Part shown: positions 1 to 21,413 of the stretch, piece after piece
Numbering within the stretch: the first letter of the stretch is position 1
How the letters are laid out: each line of letters begins with the position of its first letter
Assembly (NCBI GenBank): GCA_022778715.1
Contig: JALFRW010000033.1
Span: 19,465 to 83,464 of the forward strand
DNA length: 64,000 nucleotides
Origin: Ezakiella sp.
GTDB taxonomy: Bacteria > Bacillota > Clostridia > Tissierellales > Peptoniphilaceae
Direction of reading: 5' to 3'
Translations under genes and position numbers: made by a program
The notes under the pieces: generated by a model
What the model was told of the DNA's origin: nothing
Database searches by the model: none
The model's input: only the letters and a program-made list of their open reading frames with translations

Positions 1-1279
1 CGGTGATGCAAGATGGATTGATCAGAAATGTACTTATGATGTAGTTTCAATTATTGCAGACTGTATAATAGAGTACGTAGATCAAAGTGATCTTAAAGAA
101 TTTACTGTTTCTGATATATGGCATAGTGAATATGCTAGAGAAAATGTAATTTCTATCTTTTCAAAGCCTGATCCAGAATTAAAAGCTGGAAATGAATATG
201 ACAAGTATTTTGGACAACCAATAAAATTATTAGGTTATAGTAAGATTCTTGATGTAAGAAAAGAGAAGAACAGATATTACTATTCTATAAATAATAGGGA
301 GTTATTAGAGAAAATTGCTTTAAGACCGACAAATGCTTTGAACTTTTTGTATGAATATATAGTTAAGGTTTTAAAAGACAGTGGAATATGGGATTCTTTT
401 GAAGAGTTCTTTAAAATACAAACTAAAGAGTCTTATAAAGATGTTAGGGACACCTTTATAAGATTCACTATAAACAATACAAAAATAAATGGAGAAACAG
501 AATGTGGTAGGATTTTTACGAAAGTCATAAATCCTCTCGCTTTTAAATTAAAAAAACAAGGTACTGAGAGAGGTAGGATTTCTAAAAATACCATCACGCT
601 AAGTGATTTACAATATAATCGTGCCAACTGGAGAGATGAGCTAAGTGGCAAAGATAAGTCAATTACTAGAGCTGAACATGAGCTAACGGTTGCACAATTG
701 CAAGCCAGAGCTATGGCTAGTTATACGGTTAATAAGGCTAAAAAAGCAATGCGTAAATTTAATGATAGTATTTATAATGGAAAATCTGAAGTTTATCAAG
801 CAACTGAGATGGTAAATGCAACTCAAGCACACCATATTTTTACTCAATCAGACTATCCAACTATTGCAGATTATGTTGAAAACTTGATAATGCTAACACC
901 AAATCAACATTATTCAATGGCTCATCCTAACAATAAAACACAATATGTGGATAAAGATTTTCAATATATATGTCTTATTGCAAAATCAACCAAAATATAT
1001 CTAGATTTAACCTCTGAGAAAGAGGATAAGTTCTATGATTTTGAAGATTATAAATTTGTATTAAATACTGGCCTTGAGACAGAAGATTTTACTTCTATAA
1101 GTTATTTAGACTTTGCAAGCATAATAGAGAAGATTGATTATTACTATATAGACAATATTAGCAACAACAAATATTATAAATTAATAAATGACAATAAATT
1201 AGACAGAAATTCTATTTATTTAAGTAGTTTAAATGATGCTAAGATGGTTGCAGAAGATATTAGTGATTATGGAATCTAA
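1..1279 (+). CDS. HNH-motif nuclease, probable restriction-type endonuclease (5' end outside window)
   Basis: Frame 2 is open from nt 2, so the listed Met at 338 is internal. The C-terminal half has a classical HNH pattern, AHHIF...ENLIMLTPNQH (about nt 830-930). The N-terminal part is unassigned. Confidence 0.6.
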   Translation, partial: GDARWIDQKCTYDVVSIIADCIIEYVDQSDLKEFTVSDIWHSEYARENVISIFSKPDPELKAGNEYDKYFGQPIKLLGYSKILDVRKEKNRYYYSINNRELLEKIALRPTNALNFLYEYIVKVLKDSGIWDSFEEFFKIQTKESYKDVRDTFIRFTINNTKINGETECGRIFTKVINPLAFKLKKQGTERGRISKNTITLSDLQYNRANWRDELSGKDKSITRAEHELTVAQLQARAMASYTVNKAKKAMRKFNDSIYNGKSEVYQATEMVNATQAHHIFTQSDYPTIADYVENLIMLTPNQHYSMAHPNNKTQYVDKDFQYICLIAKSTKIYLDLTSEKEDKFYDFEDYKFVLNTGLETEDFTSISYLDFASIIEKIDYYYIDNISNNKYYKLINDNKLDRNSIYLSSLNDAKMVAEDISDYGI

Positions 1280-1315
1280 TAATAAAAGCTTATCTTGCTT
1301 TAGAAAGGAGGGAGT

Positions 1316-2344
1316 ATGAATCAAGAAGAATATTATATGTCATTGCCTAAAGATTTATCAGGAAGTATAACAAAAAATAGATTTAGAATGGAATTATTAT
1401 GGGGTGTAAGTAAAATTATTGATGCCCATAAAGAAAGTGAAGATTATTCGGTAATATTTGATTTTAAATGTGATATTGAATTACACAAAGAACAAGAGAT
1501 GTTTTTTTATCAAATAAAAACAAGAAAATCTGGAAATTTTAATGAAAATAATTTGTGCAAAATAAATAATAAAGAAAATAATTCTATTTTAGGCAAGTTA
1601 TATGCTCTTTACTCTCCTAATCAAAATATAAAATTGGCTATAGTCTGTAATAGACCACTTAAAATAAGAAAAAAAGATATTGATTTTTACGAAAAATGTT
1701 TTGGAGAAATTGACAAAGATGCAATTGATGAAATAAAAAATAAGTTGTGTATAGAATTAAACATAGAATCAGTAAATGTAGATAATGTGTTTTATATATT
1801 TGATGAGATGGATTTTCAACACCCTGAAGATGCAATAAAAGGTAAATTAATAAGTTCTTTTGAAGAAATAAAAAATGAAGAGCCACAAAATCCGAATGCA
1901 CTTTATAGATTGGTTATGGACACGGTGAAACAGAAAGCGGCATATGAGTTAGATGTAAAGGATTATGATGAAGTAAAAAAGAAAAAGGGCATTACTCGAA
2001 CTGAGTTTGATAGAATGTTAGATTCTCATAAAAAAGAATCGAAAAATGGGATTAATGAAACACAAAATTTTATCAATACATTGTCATTAAGAAGACAAAG
2101 AAAATATAATATTGCATTAAGTGATTTGCTAGAAATTCAAAATACTGAGAGTTTGCGTTTAATAAGGGTACAAATTTTTAATTATATTCGCGAAAATGAA
2201 GATTCATTTATTGATGAAGAAGATTATTTAAATAAAATATCTAGAGTCTTCAATAATGATTTTAATATTGAAATAACAAATGATATGAAAGACGTGCAAT
2301 ATTTAATAGTTTATTTTATTTATGCGACTGGAGGGGAAATATAA
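1316..2344 (+). CDS. LmuA-like effector with N-terminal Cap4/DUF4297-type PD-(D/E)xK nuclease domain
   Basis: AGGAGG RBS 5 nt before the ATG. The N-terminus has IFDF...DIELHK...FYQIKTRK, a D..ExK..K-like pattern typical of DUF4297. Its stop overlaps the start of the next ORF. Confidence 0.6.
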   Translation: MNQEEYYMSLPKDLSGSITKNRFRMELLWGVSKIIDAHKESEDYSVIFDFKCDIELHKEQEMFFYQIKTRKSGNFNENNLCKINNKENNSILGKLYALYSPNQNIKLAIVCNRPLKIRKKDIDFYEKCFGEIDKDAIDEIKNKLCIELNIESVNVDNVFYIFDEMDFQHPEDAIKGKLISSFEEIKNEEPQNPNALYRLVMDTVKQKAAYELDVKDYDEVKKKKGITRTEFDRMLDSHKKESKNGINETQNFINTLSLRRQRKYNIALSDLLEIQNTESLRLIRVQIFNYIRENEDSFIDEEDYLNKISRVFNNDFNIEITNDMKDVQYLIVYFIYATGGEI

Positions 2345-4026
2345 TGGATTTAACTTTTGATCAAATATACATCTTTGATATAAATAAAGAAGAAGCATAT
2401 ACACAAACTTTTTACAAAGGATTAAATATCATTACTTCCAGTGAAGTTGACGGAACTGACAGAGGAAAGTCCGTGTTACTTAGAAGTTTATATCATTCTT
2501 TAGGAGCTGAAGCGAACTTTGATTCAAAATGGAATGAAAAAGATAAAGTATATATTCTTAAATTTAGTGTAGATGATAATAAGTATTCAATTTATAGGTC
2601 AAAAAGACTCTTTAAGATATTCGATAATAAAAATCAATTGATTTTCAAAACTATTCATAGAACTGAATTATCAATTTTTTTGGGCGAATTATTTGGTTTT
2701 ACTATTTTTTTACCAAATAAGAATACAAAACAATTAGAAGTTGCACCTCCCGTGTATAGTTTCATTTTAAATTATTTGGATCAAGATAAATACGACGGAA
2801 CTAAATTCAGTTCTTTTAATAATCTTGCTCAATATAGTAATTTTAAAATAAATGTAATATACACGCACTTAGGTATATATAATAAAGATTACTTTGAACT
2901 AATTAAGCAAAAGGAAGAAATAGAAAGTAAAATTAAAATCACTAAAGAGGAGATACAGGAATTAGACAAGTTAAAGAATAGAACTTTAGCAATGCTTAAG
3001 GGATTTTCTTGTCCAGAAAGTAGTAATGCTTTAGAAAATGAATTAAAAATCGAAACAAAAGAGTATTCTAGATTGATGAATGAAATTAGTGAAATTAGAA
3101 ATAAACTTGTGGATTTAAGAAATCAATTAGAGGAACAAAAAATTGCCTTGAATCAGATTGATAGATTTGCAAAAAAACAAGAAAAAGAAATAAAAAATAT
3201 TTTATTAACACATATATGTCCAGAGTGCCACACTATTTTAAACGATACTATAAATATAAGGAGCAAGAGATATAACAATGTTGATAACGCGATAGATTTA
3301 AAAGATACAATTAATGTAGAAAGCATTAAAATCAAAGAAGAAATTGAAAAATATGAAAAAGACTATTCTGAGTTGGCGGCTCACTTGAAAGAACATAATG
3401 AAAAAATATCTAGTAATAGAAAGGAAATCAATAACTATATAAAATTTAAAGGACTAAATGACTTAATAGATAAAATAAATGAGGATCTATTATTTAATAA
3501 TGGCATGGTCGTACAAGCACAAGATGATATTAAACCTATAAAAAAAGAAATAAAAGAAATTAGTCAAAGGATTAAATCTGTTGACGAAGATTATTATTAT
3601 TTAATCGATAAATTGAAAAATAGATTTAATTTAAATGAATTAGATGATACAAACTATCAGAATTTATCTAAAAATTTTTGTGCTAGTGGTAGTAACAAAC
3701 CTTTATCCACTGTTATATGGTATCTAACACTTAATGATTTAAAACAAAAGTACAATTCTAAAGAAATTGAATTTCCAATGGTGTTTGATAGTCCAAATAA
3801 TGTTGAAACCGATCAAGAGAAAAAGATGGCTTTAATTAAATTTATTTTAGAATCATCAAATAAATTCAATCAGATGATAATATCATCTATAGGGTTTTCT
3901 AAAGATGAATATGAAATAGATTCTGAAGTTCATATTAATATTTTAGACAATGATAAATATCATCTGTTAAATGAGCCTGACTATATTCAAAACTATGAAA
4001 TTTTGAAATATATGAATGATGCATAA
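2344..4026 (+). CDS. LmuB-like SMC/Rad50-like ATPase (DUF3732-like) with central CxxC hook
   Basis: N-terminal P-loop-like DGTDRGKS. About 250 aa of K/E/L/I-rich, coiled-coil-like sequence with CPEC at aa 292-295. C-terminal FPMVFDSPNN is Walker-B-like. TAATG overlap with the upstream ORF. Confidence 0.6.
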   Translation: MDLTFDQIYIFDINKEEAYTQTFYKGLNIITSSEVDGTDRGKSVLLRSLYHSLGAEANFDSKWNEKDKVYILKFSVDDNKYSIYRSKRLFKIFDNKNQLIFKTIHRTELSIFLGELFGFTIFLPNKNTKQLEVAPPVYSFILNYLDQDKYDGTKFSSFNNLAQYSNFKINVIYTHLGIYNKDYFELIKQKEEIESKIKITKEEIQELDKLKNRTLAMLKGFSCPESSNALENELKIETKEYSRLMNEISEIRNKLVDLRNQLEEQKIALNQIDRFAKKQEKEIKNILLTHICPECHTILNDTINIRSKRYNNVDNAIDLKDTINVESIKIKEEIEKYEKDYSELAAHLKEHNEKISSNRKEINNYIKFKGLNDLIDKINEDLLFNNGMVVQAQDDIKPIKKEIKEISQRIKSVDEDYYYLIDKLKNRFNLNELDDTNYQNLSKNFCASGSNKPLSTVIWYLTLNDLKQKYNSKEIEFPMVFDSPNNVETDQEKKMALIKFILESSNKFNQMIISSIGFSKDEYEIDSEVHINILDNDKYHLLNEPDYIQNYEILKYMNDA

Positions 4027-4034
4027 AAATGCAG

Positions 4035-5366
4035 CTACCTTTCCACTTCCTTCCTATAATAATTTTCATAGTTTTTTCTATACTGAACAAGATCGGAAAG
4101 TTGTTCTTTATTCAAAGAATACTCTTGCATAAGGGTGTTCTTTTTTTCTTGCAATTTATCGAGTTTGGTTAGTATTTCTTTTGTATTTGGCAGTTTTTTA
4201 TAGTTTTCTAAGATTTCTTTTGCAGCTATTTTATAGACAGAAAGTTCACTATAATATTCTTCCGCAAATTGCTTATCTTGAGGATTTTTCTTATGGTATT
4301 TATAGATTTCACGATACTTATTTATAGTATTTATATTTTCCATATCTTGGGATAAACTCTTCATTTCAGTTTCAATTTTCTTTATTTTATCTAACAAATC
4401 TTGTCTATCATAAGCAGATTTTTTGATTATATCATCGAGTTGAGTGATTGAATTAATTCCTTGCTCTCTAAGTTTAATTATTGAATCAGCCATTGTTTTG
4501 ATATTGTGCTTTCTTGCCCATACTTCATAACCTTTTGAGGATTGAGCTTTTTTATTAGTAGATATATCAATAACATTTCCTACTCGTTTTTTAATAGGAT
4601 TAGCTTTGTTTTTAATAGCTAAATCTATTCTTTCTTTGATTTTTTCTTCGGTATAATCTTCCCCGATAGTCTTTGCTCTTGTAAATCTTTGCTTATCTTT
4701 ATGACGAAAAGCAATGTGTTTACCAAATTTAATTTCATAATCAAGAGATTTCATATTTTCTAAAAATTCTTCCCACGATTTAGACTTATTAATCATTCTA
4801 TCTATATCAAATTGCAGTTTAGACTTCCAAGAATTTCCTTTCTTATTTTGGTCATATTCGTACCAAGATTTACCAGCAGTTTTATATTTTCTTTTGTAAG
4901 CTTCATAATATTCATCAATGACTGAAAGCTTATTTTCTTTACACAATTCATCACTTTGATACCTGATTTTATGGTAAGTTTTTTTGTTAGATTGGTAGCA
5001 TTTACCAGTCTTGTAATTAACATTATTAAAAATAATATGGTTATGGATATGCCCTCTATCAATATGAGTTGAAAGAACAAATTCATAATCTTCTTTTAAA
5101 ATTTTCTTGCATAACTCCATTCCAATTTCGTGAGCTTTTATAGGATCAACCTCTCCTGGTAGAAAAGATTGGATTAAATGTCTAGCCAAAACTTTACCTG
5201 TAGTATCATTATCTTCTCGTGTTTTCATAAATTGTATGTGGGCAGTAGATGGATGACATTTAAATGAAGATATCAAGATTTTTTCATCAGTTTTTTCACT
5301 CTTAGTTATATAGTCTATTGCCAAATTTAGGGTTGATTTTATAGGATGTATTTTTGTAATTGCCAT
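4035..5366 (-). CDS. Relaxase/mobilization nuclease (MobA/VirD2 family)
   Basis: N-terminal MAITKIHPIK and histidine triad HIDRGHIHNHIIFN. The ATG at 5366 lies 1 nt after the mobC stop. An alternative GTG start is at 5375. Confidence 0.85.
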   Translation of the reverse strand: MAITKIHPIKSTLNLAIDYITKSEKTDEKILISSFKCHPSTAHIQFMKTREDNDTTGKVLARHLIQSFLPGEVDPIKAHEIGMELCKKILKEDYEFVLSTHIDRGHIHNHIIFNNVNYKTGKCYQSNKKTYHKIRYQSDELCKENKLSVIDEYYEAYKRKYKTAGKSWYEYDQNKKGNSWKSKLQFDIDRMINKSKSWEEFLENMKSLDYEIKFGKHIAFRHKDKQRFTRAKTIGEDYTEEKIKERIDLAIKNKANPIKKRVGNVIDISTNKKAQSSKGYEVWARKHNIKTMADSIIKLREQGINSITQLDDIIKKSAYDRQDLLDKIKKIETEMKSLSQDMENINTINKYREIYKYHKKNPQDKQFAEEYYSELSVYKIAAKEILENYKKLPNTKEILTKLDKLQEKKNTLMQEYSLNKEQLSDLVQYRKNYENYYRKEVER

Positions 5367-5367
5367 A

Positions 5368-5724
5368 CTAATCACCAGAACTTTCTTTTGATTTATTTAG
5401 AAGTAGGGAATGAATCTGCCATATTTCTCTTGATAATTTTTCTATCTGCTTATTCATTGATTCAATTTCATTTTTGTAAATAACACCAGTTGTATTAGTA
5501 GCTTTTGCGATCTGGTTTATATTATTCGTAGCATTTGAAAGTAACCATTGTAGGTTTCTAAATGGTTCTAAATCTACAACATATATCTCTTTTTCTAATA
5601 CACATTTTCTAAGAAAATGGGACATTGTTTTGCAATTTGCAAGTTTCATTTTCTTTTCGAAAACTTCTTTTTCTTCCTTAGTTAGTTTTATTTCTATTCT
5701 TTCATTTCTAAATCTATTTGCCAT
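5368..5724 (-). CDS. mobC: MobC-family relaxosome accessory protein
   Basis: 118 aa immediately upstream of the relaxase. Typical MobC pattern (RxxRIEIKLTxEEK..., NNINQIAK). Confidence 0.8.
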   Translation of the reverse strand: MANRFRNERIEIKLTKEEKEVFEKKMKLANCKTMSHFLRKCVLEKEIYVVDLEPFRNLQWLLSNATNNINQIAKATNTTGVIYKNEIESMNKQIEKLSREIWQIHSLLLNKSKESSGD

Positions 5725-5786
5725 TTTATTCTCCTTTATAAAATAAATTTTGGGGTCTTAGGGTTCTCCCTAACAAGGTAAAAATT

Positions 5787-5821
5787 AAAAAAATGGAGCA
5801 TGCCATAAAGGTCTGCTCCAT
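5787..5821 (-). terminator. Hairpin with flanking A/T runs (intrinsic terminator of the 5900-7096 gene)
   Basis: ATGGAGCA (5793-5800) pairs with TGCTCCAT (5814-5821). An A6 run precedes it on the plus strand, which reads as a T-run on the minus strand. Confidence 0.5.
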
Positions 5822-5831
5822 TAATTTTTTC

Positions 5832-5851
5832 GTAAGTGTCCGTACACTTAC
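5832..5851. other. Candidate oriT inverted repeat
   Basis: Perfect 8-bp inverted repeat GTAAGTGT-ccgt-ACACTTAC upstream of mobC. TAAGTG-like cores occur at nic regions of MOBQ-type oriTs. Confidence 0.35.
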
Positions 5852-5899
5852 TGTGCTTGCTATTAAAGTTATAAGCGTTAAGCGTGTATTAAGTTGTCT

Positions 5900-7096
5900 C
5901 TAATCTTCAGCTATAAAATTAAATTTCTCAGCAATAGGTTCTCCATCATTATACAACCATGATTCTCTTGAACCAAAGATATTAGCAAATTTATTGAAAA
6001 ACAGGTACATAGATGATTGATAAGATGTATTTATATCCCACTTAACAAATTGAGACTTAATGATATTTTGCTTTATGGGTTCAGAAAGTTCTCCAAAACC
6101 TGAAGTTCTTGAGTAATAATCTTTAACATTTAATAAGGTAAAAGAAATATAGAATCCAGTTCCTAATCTTTGTTTATACAGTTCTTTGCAATAATTATAT
6201 ATTTTTTTAGCAATAATTTTTTCAAAATTATCCCAGCAGTAAATCATTTTAGGATTTTCATCCACATCATATTTCATCAAATAAATTTCTCCAATTTCTA
6301 AATTGCCATTAGAAAAAATTTGTATATATGTTGATAAGAGATCTTTATGATTTCTTCGAGTTTTGATTAACCCATTTGCATTATAATTTACTGAACCATG
6401 GTGACCATCGGGATTGAAAATATCTAAATTATCATTATATTCACAAGCTTTTAGATCAATATATGTTCTTTCATCAAATGAAACTTCAGGTAAAATGTGT
6501 ATTAATAATAAAGGTGATGTTATTAAGGTATCATCTACCTCACTATTTAAAATACTAGAGATTCTTTCGCTTCTGAAACTTTCTAATTTTTGTTGCCTAT
6601 TGCTTAGAGAATCAAAACTATTTTTCAAATCATTGTATCTCATTTGAATGGAAGTATTTCCATTTCTTATATAAAATTCATGGTTACTACCAGTGTTATA
6701 TGCGTGTGGTTTTAATACACTTCTAGGGACATCTATGATAATGCAATTAGTATCATCTCTAACTTCAACAAGTTCCGTTTTTATCCCATAGAGAGAAGGG
6801 ATAATGTTTACAGAAAGTTTATTTCTTAAAGCTTGCTCCCACATTTCGAATGTATCTTTGTTCACACCTACATCAGATAATTCTGAAGGATTATGGTTGT
6901 TGTCTTCCTTTAATCCTAATATTATTCTTCCACCATTATAGTTAGCTAAGGCACATATTTCTTTAAATAATTTAGCAAGTTCTTTTTGATCTAGACTTGT
7001 TAATTTACCGTTTGTAAAATAGTAATCTTTATATTCTAATGTATCACTTTCGGATATTTTTTCAGATATAATTTCTTCCAAAAATTCTCTACTCAT
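5900..7096 (-). CDS. AlbA_2 (Schlafen-like) domain protein with unassigned C-terminal domain
   Basis: N-terminus ESDTLEYKD...LAKLFKEICALANYNGGRIILGL matches the AlbA_2 divergent-AAA pattern. GGAGG RBS 5 nt before the ATG at 7096. The listed TTG start at 7108 lies within that RBS. Confidence 0.6.
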   Translation of the reverse strand: MSREFLEEIISEKISESDTLEYKDYYFTNGKLTSLDQKELAKLFKEICALANYNGGRIILGLKEDNNHNPSELSDVGVNKDTFEMWEQALRNKLSVNIIPSLYGIKTELVEVRDDTNCIIIDVPRSVLKPHAYNTGSNHEFYIRNGNTSIQMRYNDLKNSFDSLSNRQQKLESFRSERISSILNSEVDDTLITSPLLLIHILPEVSFDERTYIDLKACEYNDNLDIFNPDGHHGSVNYNANGLIKTRRNHKDLLSTYIQIFSNGNLEIGEIYLMKYDVDENPKMIYCWDNFEKIIAKKIYNYCKELYKQRLGTGFYISFTLLNVKDYYSRTSGFGELSEPIKQNIIKSQFVKWDINTSYQSSMYLFFNKFANIFGSRESWLYNDGEPIAEKFNFIAED

Positions 7097-7372
7097 AATT
7101 TCCTCCAAGTATAAATTTCATTCTACCTTTAAACACTGGGATACTAATCAAGAATACAATTAGATAATGTATAGAGGAATTTATCATCATATTTTTTGTT
7201 ATTGGTAATTGATGATAAGTTTGACCAATTATTTTAAAAGCACTTAGAGTGCTTATAATAAAATTCATTGTCAATCATAGGGCAATTGATAATTTTATTA
7301 TATGATAGATTGTAAAATTAAGTGCGACACCTCAAGTATCTATTTTGCAACAGTACCATTTTACTAGTATTA

Positions 7373-18822: not shown

Positions 18823-20151
18823 ATGAAAGCAACAGAAATTTGGTACTTAGTTTTAAAGGAATTACAAAGAAATTATTATTTGGGTAATGCGAGTTATATG
18901 AGTTATATAGAACCACTTACCCCTATTTGTGTTAAAGATAATTTTTTGGTGGTGATGGGACCTAATTTGTTCACAATTAATATAGTCACCAGAAAATACC
19001 AAGATGTCATTGATAATGCAGTTAAATCTATTAATCCTAATCTCAATTTTATGCTAATTCCCGAGAGCGAAAAAGATAAATACGAAGCTGAGGAGTATGT
19101 GCGAGAAGAAGTTGACGATAGAGTGGAACGTCCACAGTTTAATCCAAAATATATTTTTGAAAATTTCGTGGTTGGCAGTTCCAATTCCTACGCTCAAGCT
19201 ACGGCTTACGCAATTTCTCAAAATCCGGGTGCTGCTTTTAATCCTTTTTTTATTTGCGGTAAAAGCGGTCTTGGAAAAACTCACTTGATGCAAGCAATTG
19301 GTCAAGAAATTTTAAAAAGAAATCAGAATTATAAATTGTGGTATGTGCCGGCTGAACAATTTGCAAATGAGTTTGTTTATGCGTTAAACTCAAATAAAAA
19401 TGAAAAATTTAGACAAAGATATCGTTATTTGGATTGTCTTTTGATCGACGATATACAATTTTTGGAAAATAAACCTAAGATTCAAGATGAATTTTTTCAT
19501 ACATTCAATACTCTTTACTCAAGAGGGGCACAAATTGTTCTTGCTAGTGACAAGCTTCCTCGAGAAATCAAAACTCTTTCAGAAAGACTTATGACTAGAT
19601 TTGAACAAGGAGTTGTAGTAGAAATTGTGATGCCTAGTTTAGAAGAGAGAAGGGCAATTTTACAAAATTTTAAAGCACTTGAAAAATATGAAATTCCGGA
19701 TAATATAATAGATATTTTGGCACAAAATGTAGACTCTTCTATTAGAGAGCTGGAAGCCAGCTTGAGAAGAGTAAACGCCTACAGTTTGATTGACAATGTT
19801 CCTCCAAGCGAAGAGATTGTAGACATGGTTTTAAATCAAATGAAGATTGAGCGAATTGAAAGTGCAAAAGTTGACGTGGCCGTTATTATAGAAAAAACCG
19901 CGAAAGCTTTTAATTTAAGTCCGGACGATATTCTCGGGCGCAGCAAGAGAAAAGATATTATTTTAGCTAGACACAGCGCTATGTATATCGCACGCGAGCT
20001 CACGGATCTAAGTTTTCCGGGTATTGGATATAAATTTAATAGAGACCACACCTCTATCATGCATGCTTATGACAAGATGAAGGAATTAACAGCAAAAGAT
20101 GAGGGCATAAACCGCAAGGTTAACGAGATTATAAAGGATATAAAAAAATAA
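18823..20151 (+). CDS. dnaA: Chromosomal replication initiator DnaA
   Basis: AAA+ Walker A GKSGLGKTH and a C-terminal DnaA DNA-binding domain (RDHTSIMHA). Flanked by DnaA boxes. Confidence 0.97.
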   Translation: MKATEIWYLVLKELQRNYYLGNASYMSYIEPLTPICVKDNFLVVMGPNLFTINIVTRKYQDVIDNAVKSINPNLNFMLIPESEKDKYEAEEYVREEVDDRVERPQFNPKYIFENFVVGSSNSYAQATAYAISQNPGAAFNPFFICGKSGLGKTHLMQAIGQEILKRNQNYKLWYVPAEQFANEFVYALNSNKNEKFRQRYRYLDCLLIDDIQFLENKPKIQDEFFHTFNTLYSRGAQIVLASDKLPREIKTLSERLMTRFEQGVVVEIVMPSLEERRAILQNFKALEKYEIPDNIIDILAQNVDSSIRELEASLRRVNAYSLIDNVPPSEEIVDMVLNQMKIERIESAKVDVAVIIEKTAKAFNLSPDDILGRSKRKDIILARHSAMYIARELTDLSFPGIGYKFNRDHTSIMHAYDKMKELTAKDEGINRKVNEIIKDIKK

Positions 20152-20264
20152 TATCCACAAAATTCTCATTTCTATACAATTTCTATTAACAGGTATTTTT
20201 GCTTATTTTAGAGATTTTTTGCACTTATCAACAGAATCCACAAAGTATACTACTAATACTATTA
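20151..20264. other. oriC part 2: DnaA boxes plus trinucleotide-periodic (DnaA-trio-like) tract
   Basis: ATATCCACA at 20151-20159. Tandem TTATCAACA and GAATCCACA at 20225-20242. CTA CTA ATA CTA TTA at 20250-20264, followed by an AT-rich tract. Confidence 0.55.
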
Positions 20265-20321
20265 TATTTATAATATAATAAGGCTTTAAAAAATTTTTAT
20301 AATTGTTAAAGGAGGTCATAA

Positions 20322-21413
20322 ATGAAATTCGAGGTTAAAACCAGTGAACTAAATAATGCTATTAGAATCGCTTCAAGAGGTGTATCAAAAGTTTCCGGAA
20401 ACAACCTTTTAGATGGAATTTTATTTTCAACTGAAAATGGTAATATCACTCTTTATTCCACCGATTTGAGAATAAATATTAAGACTGTTTTAGAATGCAA
20501 TGTTATTGAAGAAGGAAAATTTATTTTAAATGCAAATTTAATTTCTGAAGTTGCTAGAAAAATGCAAGGCGAAAATTGCATGGTGGATATAAATAATAAT
20601 TTATGCACTATTAAAAGCGAAAGGAGTACACTTAAGTTTGCTTGTTCCCCTGCAGATGAGTTTCCAAAATTTCCTACTTTAGAGGAAAATGGTCGCCTAA
20701 CAATTTCCGGAGAAGATTTTATAAATATGGTTTCAAAATCCAGGGTGTCCGTTTCTTTGGACGAAAATCGTTTAATATACACCGGTATAAAGTTTGAAAG
20801 TAAGGATGGATTTATTGAAGCATCTTCTCTAGATGGATACAGGATAAGTATTACTAAAAAAAAGACTGACTACAACAATGGAAATATTAGTTTTATTGTG
20901 CCGTCTCAAACTCTTTATGACGTGGAAAAGCTCATAAAAGAAGATGAAGAACTTTTGATCAGATTGACAGATAGCCACGCGATGATTAGTTTTTCCAACA
21001 CAGAAATTTACACCAGACTTTTTGAAGGTGACTTTTTTGACTATAACTCTCTAGTTTCAACTGATGGTACAACTGAAGTGATTGTAAATAAAAAAGATTT
21101 GTCAGATGCTCTTGATAGAGCAATGATTGTGTCTAAGGGCAATGTAAATATGGTAAGGCTTGATATTAAAGATAACAATATGAATATTAGAAGTAAGGGT
21201 TCTCTTGGTGAAACAAATGACGATTTGGAAATAGAAAAAAGTGGTGAAAACTTATTAATTGCATTTAATCCGAAATATATGAGAGATGGAATTGCAGAGT
21301 TTAGTGAAGACAACATCAAGATGGTGTTTAAATCAAGCACTGATCCACTCACAATTTTTGGTCTAAAAGATATTGAATACACTTATATTTTACTACCTGT
21401 GAGGCTGCAATAA
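20322..21413 (+). CDS. dnaN: DNA polymerase III beta sliding clamp
   Basis: 363 aa in the conserved position after dnaA, with a typical N-terminus. GGAGG RBS. Confidence 0.95.
   Translation: MKFEVKTSELNNAIRIASRGVSKVSGNNLLDGILFSTENGNITLYSTDLRINIKTVLECNVIEEGKFILNANLISEVARKMQGENCMVDINNNLCTIKSERSTLKFACSPADEFPKFPTLEENGRLTISGEDFINMVSKSRVSVSLDENRLIYTGIKFESKDGFIEASSLDGYRISITKKKTDYNNGNISFIVPSQTLYDVEKLIKEDEELLIRLTDSHAMISFSNTEIYTRLFEGDFFDYNSLVSTDGTTEVIVNKKDLSDALDRAMIVSKGNVNMVRLDIKDNNMNIRSKGSLGETNDDLEIEKSGENLLIAFNPKYMRDGIAEFSEDNIKMVFKSSTDPLTIFGLKDIEYTYILLPVRLQ

Follow-up and report, generated by a model that had tools for sequence, protein, structure and literature searches.

A probable two-gene type I Lamassu system beside a MOBQ mobilization module in Ezakiella sp.

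Introduction

The closest described relative of the locus reported here is BcLmuAB of Bacillus cellulasensis NIO-1130, a Lamassu operon that consists of lmuA and lmuB without LmuC. It is reportedly the system of Doron and colleagues (2018). We analyze a gene pair of the same organization, lmuAB, in a 64,000-nt stretch of DNA from Ezakiella sp. (GenBank assembly GCA_022778715.1, contig JALFRW010000033.1, positions 19,465 to 83,464 of the forward strand), which we call the window and number from its first letter. An initial annotation, made from the letters of this stretch alone, had described the pair as a Lamassu-like cassette of a Cap4/DUF4297-like nuclease and an ATPase resembling SMC (structural maintenance of chromosomes) proteins and Rad50.

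The structure and mechanism of type I Lamassu were published in 2025, and the same study, which compares type I and type II structures, placed the Bacillus cellulasensis system in the type I clade (10.1101/2025.06.23.660979). BcLmuAB has been validated against phages (10.1101/2025.06.23.660979, PMC12663957). Cryogenic electron microscopy and biochemistry are available for BcLmuAB (PDB: 9ux7/9ux8) and for two type II systems, VcLmuACB from Vibrio cholerae (9uxh) and Salmonella LmuACB (9hqu/9hqx/9hr5) (10.1101/2025.06.23.660979, PMC12663957, 10.1101/2025.03.14.643221). In these systems, an LmuB dimer grips one LmuA monomer by its C-terminal domain (CTD) at the distal coiled coil, and the complex binds the ends of double-stranded DNA (dsDNA) (10.1101/2025.06.23.660979, 10.1101/2025.03.14.643221, PMC12663957). 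ATP binding and slow hydrolysis are required, and the Walker A mutants K37A and K40A are dead (K37 is the BcLmuB residue; 10.1101/2025.06.23.660979). Freed LmuA assembles into a tetramer that has a single composite active site, and the resulting DNA degradation leads to abortive infection. In BcLmuB, 285CQYC288 is described as a canonical zinc hook whose two copies lie side by side in the dimer, at the far end from the heads (10.1101/2025.06.23.660979), while VcLmuB from the best-studied system, that of V. cholerae, is without a zinc hook (PMC12663957).

The lmuA-lmuB gene pair

Two open reading frames (ORFs) on the forward strand make up the locus: lmuA (1316–2344, 342 aa) encodes the effector, and lmuB (2344–4026, 560 aa) encodes the sensor, an SMC/Rad50-like ATP-binding cassette (ABC) ATPase. 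We consider lmuAB to be an intact two-gene, LmuC-less short Lamassu of type I ("clade S"), with a probability of roughly 0.88. The defining features of type I Lamassu that can be assessed computationally are all found here. LmuB is a split-head ATPase with a Walker A lysine, a Walker B motif of the form hhhhD[Q/S/T/E], and a single apical CxxC; LmuA is an effector with a helical CTD; lmuA lies directly before lmuB; and there is no LmuC. The locus lacks a defining feature of type II Lamassu and the ABC-three-component systems, of Rad50/SbcCD, of CBASS-Cap4, of Wadjet, and of DUF3732 proteins. The pair matches the PADLOC models for LmuA (PDLC00239, E 1.9e-144) and LmuB (PDLC00254, E 1.8e-223) end to end, the test that the initial annotation had suggested. 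Sequence profiles, fold, and gene order thus identify a member of the Lamassu family rather than something merely Lamassu-like.

The stop codon of lmuA (TAA, 2342–2344) and the start codon of lmuB (ATG, 2344–2346) have base 2344 in common, and these coordinates and the 1-nt overlap had been annotated correctly to the nucleotide. The DNA around lmuAB has a G+C content of about 25%, at which a random codon is a stop with a probability of 0.10. The chances of 342 and 560 stop-free codons at this composition are about 1e-16 and 6e-27, respectively, so low that neither ORF is accidental. A Shine-Dalgarno-like sequence, AGGAGGG, precedes lmuA (1306–1312, forward strand), and an internal GGAGG within the 3' end of lmuA (2330–2334, forward strand) forms a ribosome-binding site 9–13 nt before the lmuB ATG; this GGAGG is kept upstream of the lmuB start in eight of nine loci compared. 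The internal site and the overlap are consistent with translational coupling of lmuA and lmuB. A terminator scan is uninformative in this AT-rich DNA (two terminator-like sites, versus 1.2 expected); one of the two is a hairpin at 4114–4143, about 90 nt beyond lmuB.

We compared eight neighborhoods of the pair, from an Ezakiella metagenome-assembled genome contig (L001, 100% identical to window positions 1–4266), Allofustis, Helcococcus, Megamonas, Veillonella, Granulicatella, Saccharibacteria (TM7), and Fusobacterium nucleatum. In all eight, lmuA directly precedes lmuB, with an overlap of 1–4 nt or a gap of a single nucleotide, and a RefSeq-annotated Bacillus cereus locus has the same adjacency. 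Restriction-modification (R-M) systems adjoin lmuAB in five of the eight contexts, which is defence-island behavior.

The same comparison bears on the possibility that the locus is a type II Lamassu or ABC-three-component system of the DdmABC kind whose small LmuC was overlooked or is encoded elsewhere. There are likenesses: the fold of LmuB also resembles type II LmuBs (9uxh_F, 2e-14; 9hqx_B, 3.5e-13), and LmuA is of the Cap4 type, as is DdmA, and would by analogy be sequestered and then tetramerize. LmuB is short, SMC-like, and deviant in its Walker B motif, and may likewise dimerize and sense DNA ends. Type II systems, however, need LmuC, and the locus leaves no space for a third gene, given the 1-nt overlap, the 36 nt between the upstream restriction endonuclease stop and lmuA, and the 8 nt between lmuB and the relaxase gene downstream. 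None of six neighboring proteins matches a PADLOC LmuC model at E≤1, and no LmuC-sized gene adjoins the pair in any of the eight contexts. By sequence, a profile of the LmuB family (built from 21 homologues) reaches only type I LmuB in the PDB, no other chain scoring below E 0.04, so type II LmuBs go undetected. A type II assignment is therefore very improbable, and the ABC-three-component-like alternative raised initially fails for want of a middle component, while the accompanying statement that there is no LmuC-like ORF holds. Because LmuC is missing here and in the seven other contexts, the cassette is the known two-gene type I Lamassu and not a new variant.

The LmuA nuclease

LmuA combines an N-terminal Cap4-type PD-(D/E)xK dsDNA nuclease domain (aa 15–208, nt 1358–1939, forward strand; Pfam PF14130 Cap4_nuclease, E 7.5e-55) with an all-helical C-terminal domain (aa 209–342, nt 1940–2341, forward strand). 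The motifs listed initially for this protein are all present (VIFDF at aa 45–49, DIELHK at aa 53–58, and FYQIKTRK at aa 64–71). Seven positions are invariant among 28 homologues of 39–98% identity (E26, D49, D53, E55, H57, Q66, and K68). D49, D53, and Q66-x-K68 line up with Bacillus cereus LmuA, and K68 is likely the catalytic lysine. The RefSeq-annotated Bacillus cereus lmuA product is 26% identical over 243 aa (BLASTP, E 3e-12). It differs in falling under the PADLOC sub-model PDLC00246, as opposed to PDLC00239 here, and in lacking the Pfam Cap4_nuclease signal that is strong in the Ezakiella protein.

The AlphaFold2 model of LmuA (mean predicted local distance difference test score, pLDDT, 89.8) places a helical domain, with helices from 217 to 337, after an αβββαβ PD-(D/E)xK nuclease. 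Its best full-length match in Foldseek is BcLmuA (9ux7_C, TM 0.55/0.60, 333 columns), CTD included, and further matches are the LmuA tetramers 9nxx and 9hr5, the nuclease domain of HamA, and the Cap4 structures 6wam/6vm6. Together with the Pfam and PADLOC scores, these matches bear out the reading of the first ORF as a Cap4/DUF4297-like nuclease. By homology, the C-terminal domain would serve in sequestration and tetramerization and dock on the distal coiled coil of LmuB.

The name of the Pfam domain and the fit of Cap4 structures to the N-terminal half could also be taken to mean that the first ORF is a stray Cap4 effector of a CBASS system and the second an unrelated coiled-coil ATPase. LmuA does resemble CBASS Cap4 (6wam, 6vm6, 7yib) in its N-terminal nuclease fold and catalytic motif, but it has neither a SAVED nor a CARF domain (Pfam finds the nuclease domain only), and its helical C-terminal 134 aa match the LmuA CTD of 9ux7_C. 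There is no CD-NTase among the neighboring genes, and the two ORFs are strictly co-inherited and apparently coupled in translation. We regard this reading as exceedingly improbable. As a type I Lamassu effector, LmuA would presumably become active once freed from LmuB, instead of responding to a cyclic oligonucleotide.

On a Veillonella contig (L022, 2977–4004), the lmuA orthologue is broken into ORFs of 76 aa and 233 aa by a frameshift or stop, and lmuB is intact. This split copy of lmuA may be inactivated.

The LmuB ATPase and its hook motif

PDLC00254, the model that LmuB matches best, is also the top match of a Bacillus cereus plasmid gene that RefSeq labels "Lamassu anti-phage system protein LmuB", and thus the top PADLOC LmuB model is common to the Ezakiella and Bacillus type I proteins. 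The two LmuBs are 28% identical over 561 aa (BLASTP, E 1e-60). Single-sequence phmmer searches of LmuA and LmuB against PDB sequences returned only noise, so that the family profile was needed to reach the solved relative: it matches 9ux7_A ("Lamassu protein LmuB"), and also 9ux8, over the full length at E 4.9e-27. LmuB has no significant Pfam match (the SMC_N and Rad50 profiles are not significant), and no NCBIfam model recognizes LmuA, LmuB, or the RefSeq-annotated Bacillus LmuA and LmuB.

The AlphaFold2 model of LmuB (mean pLDDT 83, predicted TM-score 0.67) consists of an N-terminal head half (aa 1–175), a coil, a hook turn, a second coil, and a C-terminal head half. The predicted coiled coil is antiparallel and kinked with about 110 residues per arm, and it is built from helices 181–218 and 227–289, with the kink between them, and a 116-residue return helix at 312–427. 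These helices account for the K/E-rich, heptad-like middle that had been noticed in the sequence. Foldseek ranks 9ux7_A, from the type I LmuAB-DNA complex, first (E 7.1e-23), followed by the type II LmuBs 9uxh, 9hqx, 9hqu, and 9nyg, and then by Rad50, SbcC, Smc5/6, JetC, and MukB. The ABC head, the antiparallel coiled coil, and the first rank of 9ux7_A agree with the initial call of an SMC/Rad50-like ATPase.

The motifs that had been read from the second ORF are likewise all present. The Walker A motif or P-loop DGTDRGKS (aa 36–43, nt 2449–2472, forward strand) has its GKS aligned with 9ux7_A, and K42 corresponds to BcLmuB K37. The Walker B motif FPMVFDSP (aa 477–484, nt 3772–3795, forward strand), part of FPMVFDSPNN at aa 477–486, has the hhhhD[S] pattern usual in short Lamassu, for which hhhhD[Q/S/T/E] is the published consensus (PMC12663957). 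Between the return helix and Walker B lies an ABC signature-like ASGSNKP (aa 447–453, nt 3682–3702, forward strand), which aligns with ASGSGQV of Bacillus cereus LmuB. Among the 21 LmuB homologues (46–96% identity), G37, D39–S43, C292, P293, C295, and D482–P484 are invariant, and so is ASGSNKP except for S448, which is kept in at least 90%.

The first glycine of the GxxxxGKS consensus is an aspartate in LmuB, and the P-loop had been singled out as deviant for this reason. The substitution is real but not special. We counted motifs over 123 full-length LmuB representatives (clusters at the 50%-identity level), and only 30 of these keep the first glycine. It is missing in 92 of the 122 in which GK[ST] was found, and also in Bacillus type I LmuBs; all these proteins have G-x3-GKS or no upstream glycine. 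This loss contrasts with the published description of LmuBs as carrying a prototypical Gx4GK[S/T] Walker A motif (PMC12663957).

CPEC (aa 292–295, nt 3217–3228, forward strand; TGT CCA GAG TGC) is predicted to lie at the tip of the coiled coil, where helix 227–289 turns back toward helix 312–427. It aligns with CQYC of 9ux7_A in the profile comparison (285CQYC288 of BcLmuB) and with CPYC of Bacillus cereus LmuB in BLASTP. The suggestion of an apical CxxC thus agrees with both the model and a solved structure. A mid-protein CxxC, mostly CPxC, occurs at residues 256–302 in 120 of the 123 representatives, and because of this recurrence the predicted hook is a hallmark of the clade. VcLmuB differs in having no zinc hook, whereas the motif is invariant in this LmuB.

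The hook and the head are also what LmuB has in common with Rad50/SbcC, and the pair might be a housekeeping DNA-repair ATPase with an associated nuclease instead of an immune system. The fold search also gives significant matches to heads of Rad50/SbcC (3auy, 1.3e-9; 7yzp, 7e-7), and Lamassu has been proposed to have evolved from SbcCD (PMC12663957). The ABC head split by an antiparallel coiled coil and the apical CxxC are common to both, as recognition of DNA ends may be. The partner of LmuB, however, is a Cap4 PD-(D/E)xK nuclease and not an Mre11/SbcD phosphoesterase, and the NCBIfam Rad50 model reaches only E 0.4. The arms are much shorter than those of Rad50/SbcC, which exceed 200 aa each, and Walker B ends in DS instead of hhhhDE and so is without the catalytic glutamate. 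The genes have a patchy, horizontally transferred distribution (96% identical between Tissierellales and Lactobacillales) in a mobile, defence-island setting among R-M systems and mobilization genes. Lamassu fold matches beat those of Rad50 by more than ten orders of magnitude in Foldseek. A housekeeping role in repair thus has very little probability. Wadjet (JetABCD) was also considered and rejected, with only weak, partial coiled-coil matches of LmuB to PADLOC JetC (7e-07) and no Jet partners present.

Some observations weigh against the assignment of lmuAB to type I Lamassu. Identity to the solved proteins is low, at 22% for BcLmuB (Foldseek) and about 12% for BcLmuA (structural). The LmuA family profile found nothing among PDB sequences, so that fold comparison was needed to reach solved relatives. 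The zinc density is unresolved in the BcLmuB map (10.1101/2025.06.23.660979). A promoter scan gave 49 promoter-like sites versus 52 expected, which is uninformative in such AT-rich DNA. Pfam DUF3732 (PF12532), to which the initial annotation had linked the second ORF, has no match in it at E≤1. The RefSeq-annotated Bacillus cereus LmuB has no DUF3732 match either (E≤0.01), so DUF3732 is not a defining mark of the clade and that link is dropped.

Resemblance to BcLmuAB and proposed mode of action

Set against BcLmuAB, the Ezakiella locus has the same two-gene operon without LmuC, an LmuB of about 560 aa with the same order of head, kinked coil, single CxxC, coil, and head, and an LmuA that joins an N-terminal PD-(D/E)xK nuclease to a helical CTD. 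Both LmuBs have a P-loop of the G-x3-GKS type and an hhhhDS Walker B. The Ezakiella LmuB differs by a 3-residue insertion before the P-loop (SSEVDGTDRGKS versus SK---GN..GKS), and the hosts of its family are host-associated anaerobes and oral or gut taxa (Ezakiella, Fusobacterium, Megamonas, Veillonella, Gemella, and TM7).

By analogy with the solved systems, contacts along the coiled coils and between the CxxC hooks would join two LmuB protomers, which probably bind one Zn2+ jointly at the hook. The LmuB pair would hold one LmuA monomer through its CTD at the distal coiled coil and thereby keep the nuclease inactive. Free dsDNA ends, such as those of phage or plasmid replication intermediates, would be bound by the complex, and ATP binding and slow hydrolysis (involving K42 and D482) would then release LmuA. 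Free LmuA is expected to tetramerize through its CTDs, so that two nuclease domains join into one active site, and the active tetramer would degrade DNA indiscriminately, aborting the infection or eliminating the plasmid. The sequence elements of this scheme (K42, D482, CPEC, the LmuA catalytic residues, and the CTD) are intact and conserved. As they all are, we assign to lmuAB a mechanism like that of BcLmuAB, with high confidence in the identity of the system and moderate confidence in the details.

Occurrence in other genomes

An exhaustive search with LmuB retrieved representatives of 1,012 clusters (50%-identity level) when the cutoff was E≤1e-3; at least 378 clusters reach E≤1e-30. In public records, these homologues are labeled only as "cytoplasmic", "hypothetical", or "DUF2326".

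A full-length LmuB homologue (37.7% identity; PADLOC LmuB, 1.5e-187) is encoded on MT836216.1, an unverified "Bacteriophage sp." scaffold from human feces (L015, 8648–10318). In twelve Klebsiella phage records, the similarity is confined to the N-terminal head of LmuB (aa 2–184).

On Saccharibacteria (TM7) contigs (L009–L011, 3663–3884), a 73-aa HTH_26 gene lies directly upstream of lmuA, and its product is 38% identical to the one encoded in Ezakiella and Allofustis. The TM7 protein may regulate the lmuAB module in some lineages. A general three-gene unit of HTH_26, lmuA, and lmuB was rejected, as an upstream HTH_26 gene occurs in only three of the eight contexts.

The genomic island and its mobilization module

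The pair is part of a chromosomal island of about 11 kb. Judging by L001, the island begins some 3.5 kb before the first base of the window, and it ends at window position ~7.2 kb. It encodes, in order, an HTH_26 protein, a fusion of C5 and N6 methyltransferases, a 100-aa ORF, a type II restriction endonuclease (REase), LmuA, LmuB, a MOBQ relaxase, and a MobC/NikA-like protein, followed by a region resembling an origin of transfer (oriT) and a Schlafen/AlbA_2 gene. The window contains dnaA (18823–20151; Pfam Bac_DnaA, 3.3e-63) and housekeeping genes from about 7.4 kb onward, and is therefore chromosomal; the idea that it represents a plasmid was rejected on the same grounds. A 363-aa ORF after dnaA (within 18823–21413) may be dnaN. 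In that case, the window would include the region of the chromosomal replication origin, with dnaA about 11 kb away from the defence island.

The REase gene upstream of lmuA is represented by its 3' part (2–1279, forward strand; PADLOC REase_II, 1.6e-113 for the partial and 1e-178 for the full gene, which encodes 441 aa in L001), and in L001 the methyltransferase fusion precedes it. Reading frame 2 is already open at base 2; the TTG start at 338 in the ORF list is an artifact of the window edge. An N-terminal truncation, suggested by a profile match that starts at position 135, was thus rejected, as the gene simply runs off the window.

Window positions 1303–5861, from the lmuA ribosome-binding site to the oriT-like region, are 89–96% identical to DNA of Allofustis seminis (a blastn block at 1303–5029 has 96%), where the homologous stretch sits in an element with serine recombinases, AbiE, and RepA_N. 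The R-M cassette upstream of lmuA, in contrast to this stretch, is swapped between conserved flanks (window 1–1302; L001 2144–6959 versus Allofustis L013 4661–8959). Ezakiella has the C5 and Eco57I-like methyltransferase fusion, the 100-aa ORF, and the type II REase in this slot, Allofustis carries a pair of D12 methyltransferases together with a FokI-like enzyme, and an LlaJI-type system occupies the slot in Helcococcus. The flanks common to Ezakiella and Allofustis are the 73-aa HTH_26 gene on the left (94% aa and 91% nt identity) and the DNA rightward from the lmuA ribosome-binding site (96%).

Convergent with lmuB, with 8 nt between the stops, is the gene for a MOBQ-type relaxase (4035–5375, reverse strand; Pfam Relaxase PF03432, 2.1e-37), which is followed by the gene for a MobC/NikA-like relaxosome accessory protein (5368–5724, reverse strand; Pfam NikA-like 3e-12, MobC_2 2e-06). 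Upstream of mobC, an oriT-like intergenic region (5744–5861) with inverted repeats I1–I4 forms the right end of the DNA common with Allofustis. The repeats are nested, for example, GTAAGTGT/ACACTTAC and TGCTCCAT/ATGGAGCA, and bases 5807–5861 recur, at 94.5% identity, in 195 Enterococcus plasmids, in DNA that carries no annotation. This region is likely the oriT and nick region common to a widespread MOBQ family. The relaxase and mobC genes (4036–5895) are 93% identical in nucleotide sequence to the conjugative Anaerococcus prevotii plasmid pAPRE01, which is typed MOBQ. The identity starts just past the lmuB stop, and the flanking cargo is therefore different, with ABC transporter and non-ribosomal peptide synthetase genes on the plasmid.

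The initial annotation had placed lmuAB on a mobilizable element. Such an element is plausible: an intact MOBQ relaxase, MobC/NikA, and an oriT-like region lie downstream, and the linkage recurs in three genera. The locus is, however, chromosomal, and neither window positions 1–7300 nor the genes called in the 5.6 kb that precede the window on L001 include a recombinase.

Two side observations concern the right part of the island. In Allofustis seminis, the relaxase orthologue is split by an insertion of a group II intron-type reverse transcriptase/maturase (L013, 12787–14664; corresponding to window 5029/5030). The right edge of the island is formed by a gene for a 402-aa protein with a Schlafen/AlbA_2 N-terminal domain (5900–7108, reverse strand; Pfam 3.6e-15), which has no PADLOC match and lies outside the DNA common with Allofustis or pAPRE01. 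This gene might likewise have a role in defence, or else in regulation.

The linkage of lmuAB to the relaxase raises the question of whom the system serves. In Ezakiella, Allofustis, and Helcococcus, the pair is convergent with MOBQ relaxase-MobC genes at a distance of 8–10 nt, and the Helcococcus proteins, encoded in the same lmuAB-relaxase-MobC order, have diverged to a similar extent (LmuA 62%, LmuB 64%, and relaxase 66% aa identity). One reading is that lmuAB is a genuine type I Lamassu whose selected role is competition between elements (plasmid elimination or exclusion) for the relaxase-bearing element, and not anti-phage defence of the host. Plasmid elimination is known for DdmABC, a type II Lamassu, but the relaxase is absent from five of the eight lmuAB contexts, BcLmuAB acts against phages, and the anti-phage and anti-plasmid roles are compatible with each other. 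We therefore consider an exclusively element-serving type I Lamassu very improbable. A somewhat better, still doubtful, proposition is that lmuAB has long been carried by a compact backbone for mobilization, made up of MOBQ relaxase, MobC, and oriT, and has beside it a slot that exchanges whole R-M cassettes (Eco57I-like, FokI-like, and LlaJI-like).

Discussion

The subfamily to which lmuAB belongs is already covered by PADLOC models, and its prototype has been solved and biochemically characterized. What we report is thus a correct annotation and not a discovery, and nothing here alters the current understanding of Lamassu. Studies of type I Lamassu have so far been confined to Bacillus; the homologues collected here form a large sister subfamily, which is found in anaerobes associated with humans and animals and extends to Saccharibacteria. 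With its near-universal CPxC, this clade is suitable for asking whether the zinc hook of Lamassu is functionally required.

The locus is also an example of defence genes carried as modules next to the relaxase of an exchangeable element. If lmuAB and the mobilization backbone form a functional unit, Lamassu, as a DNA-end sensor with anti-plasmid activity, may serve the element against competing plasmids. If this is true, Lamassu would need tuning to ignore the relaxase-processed DNA of its own element.

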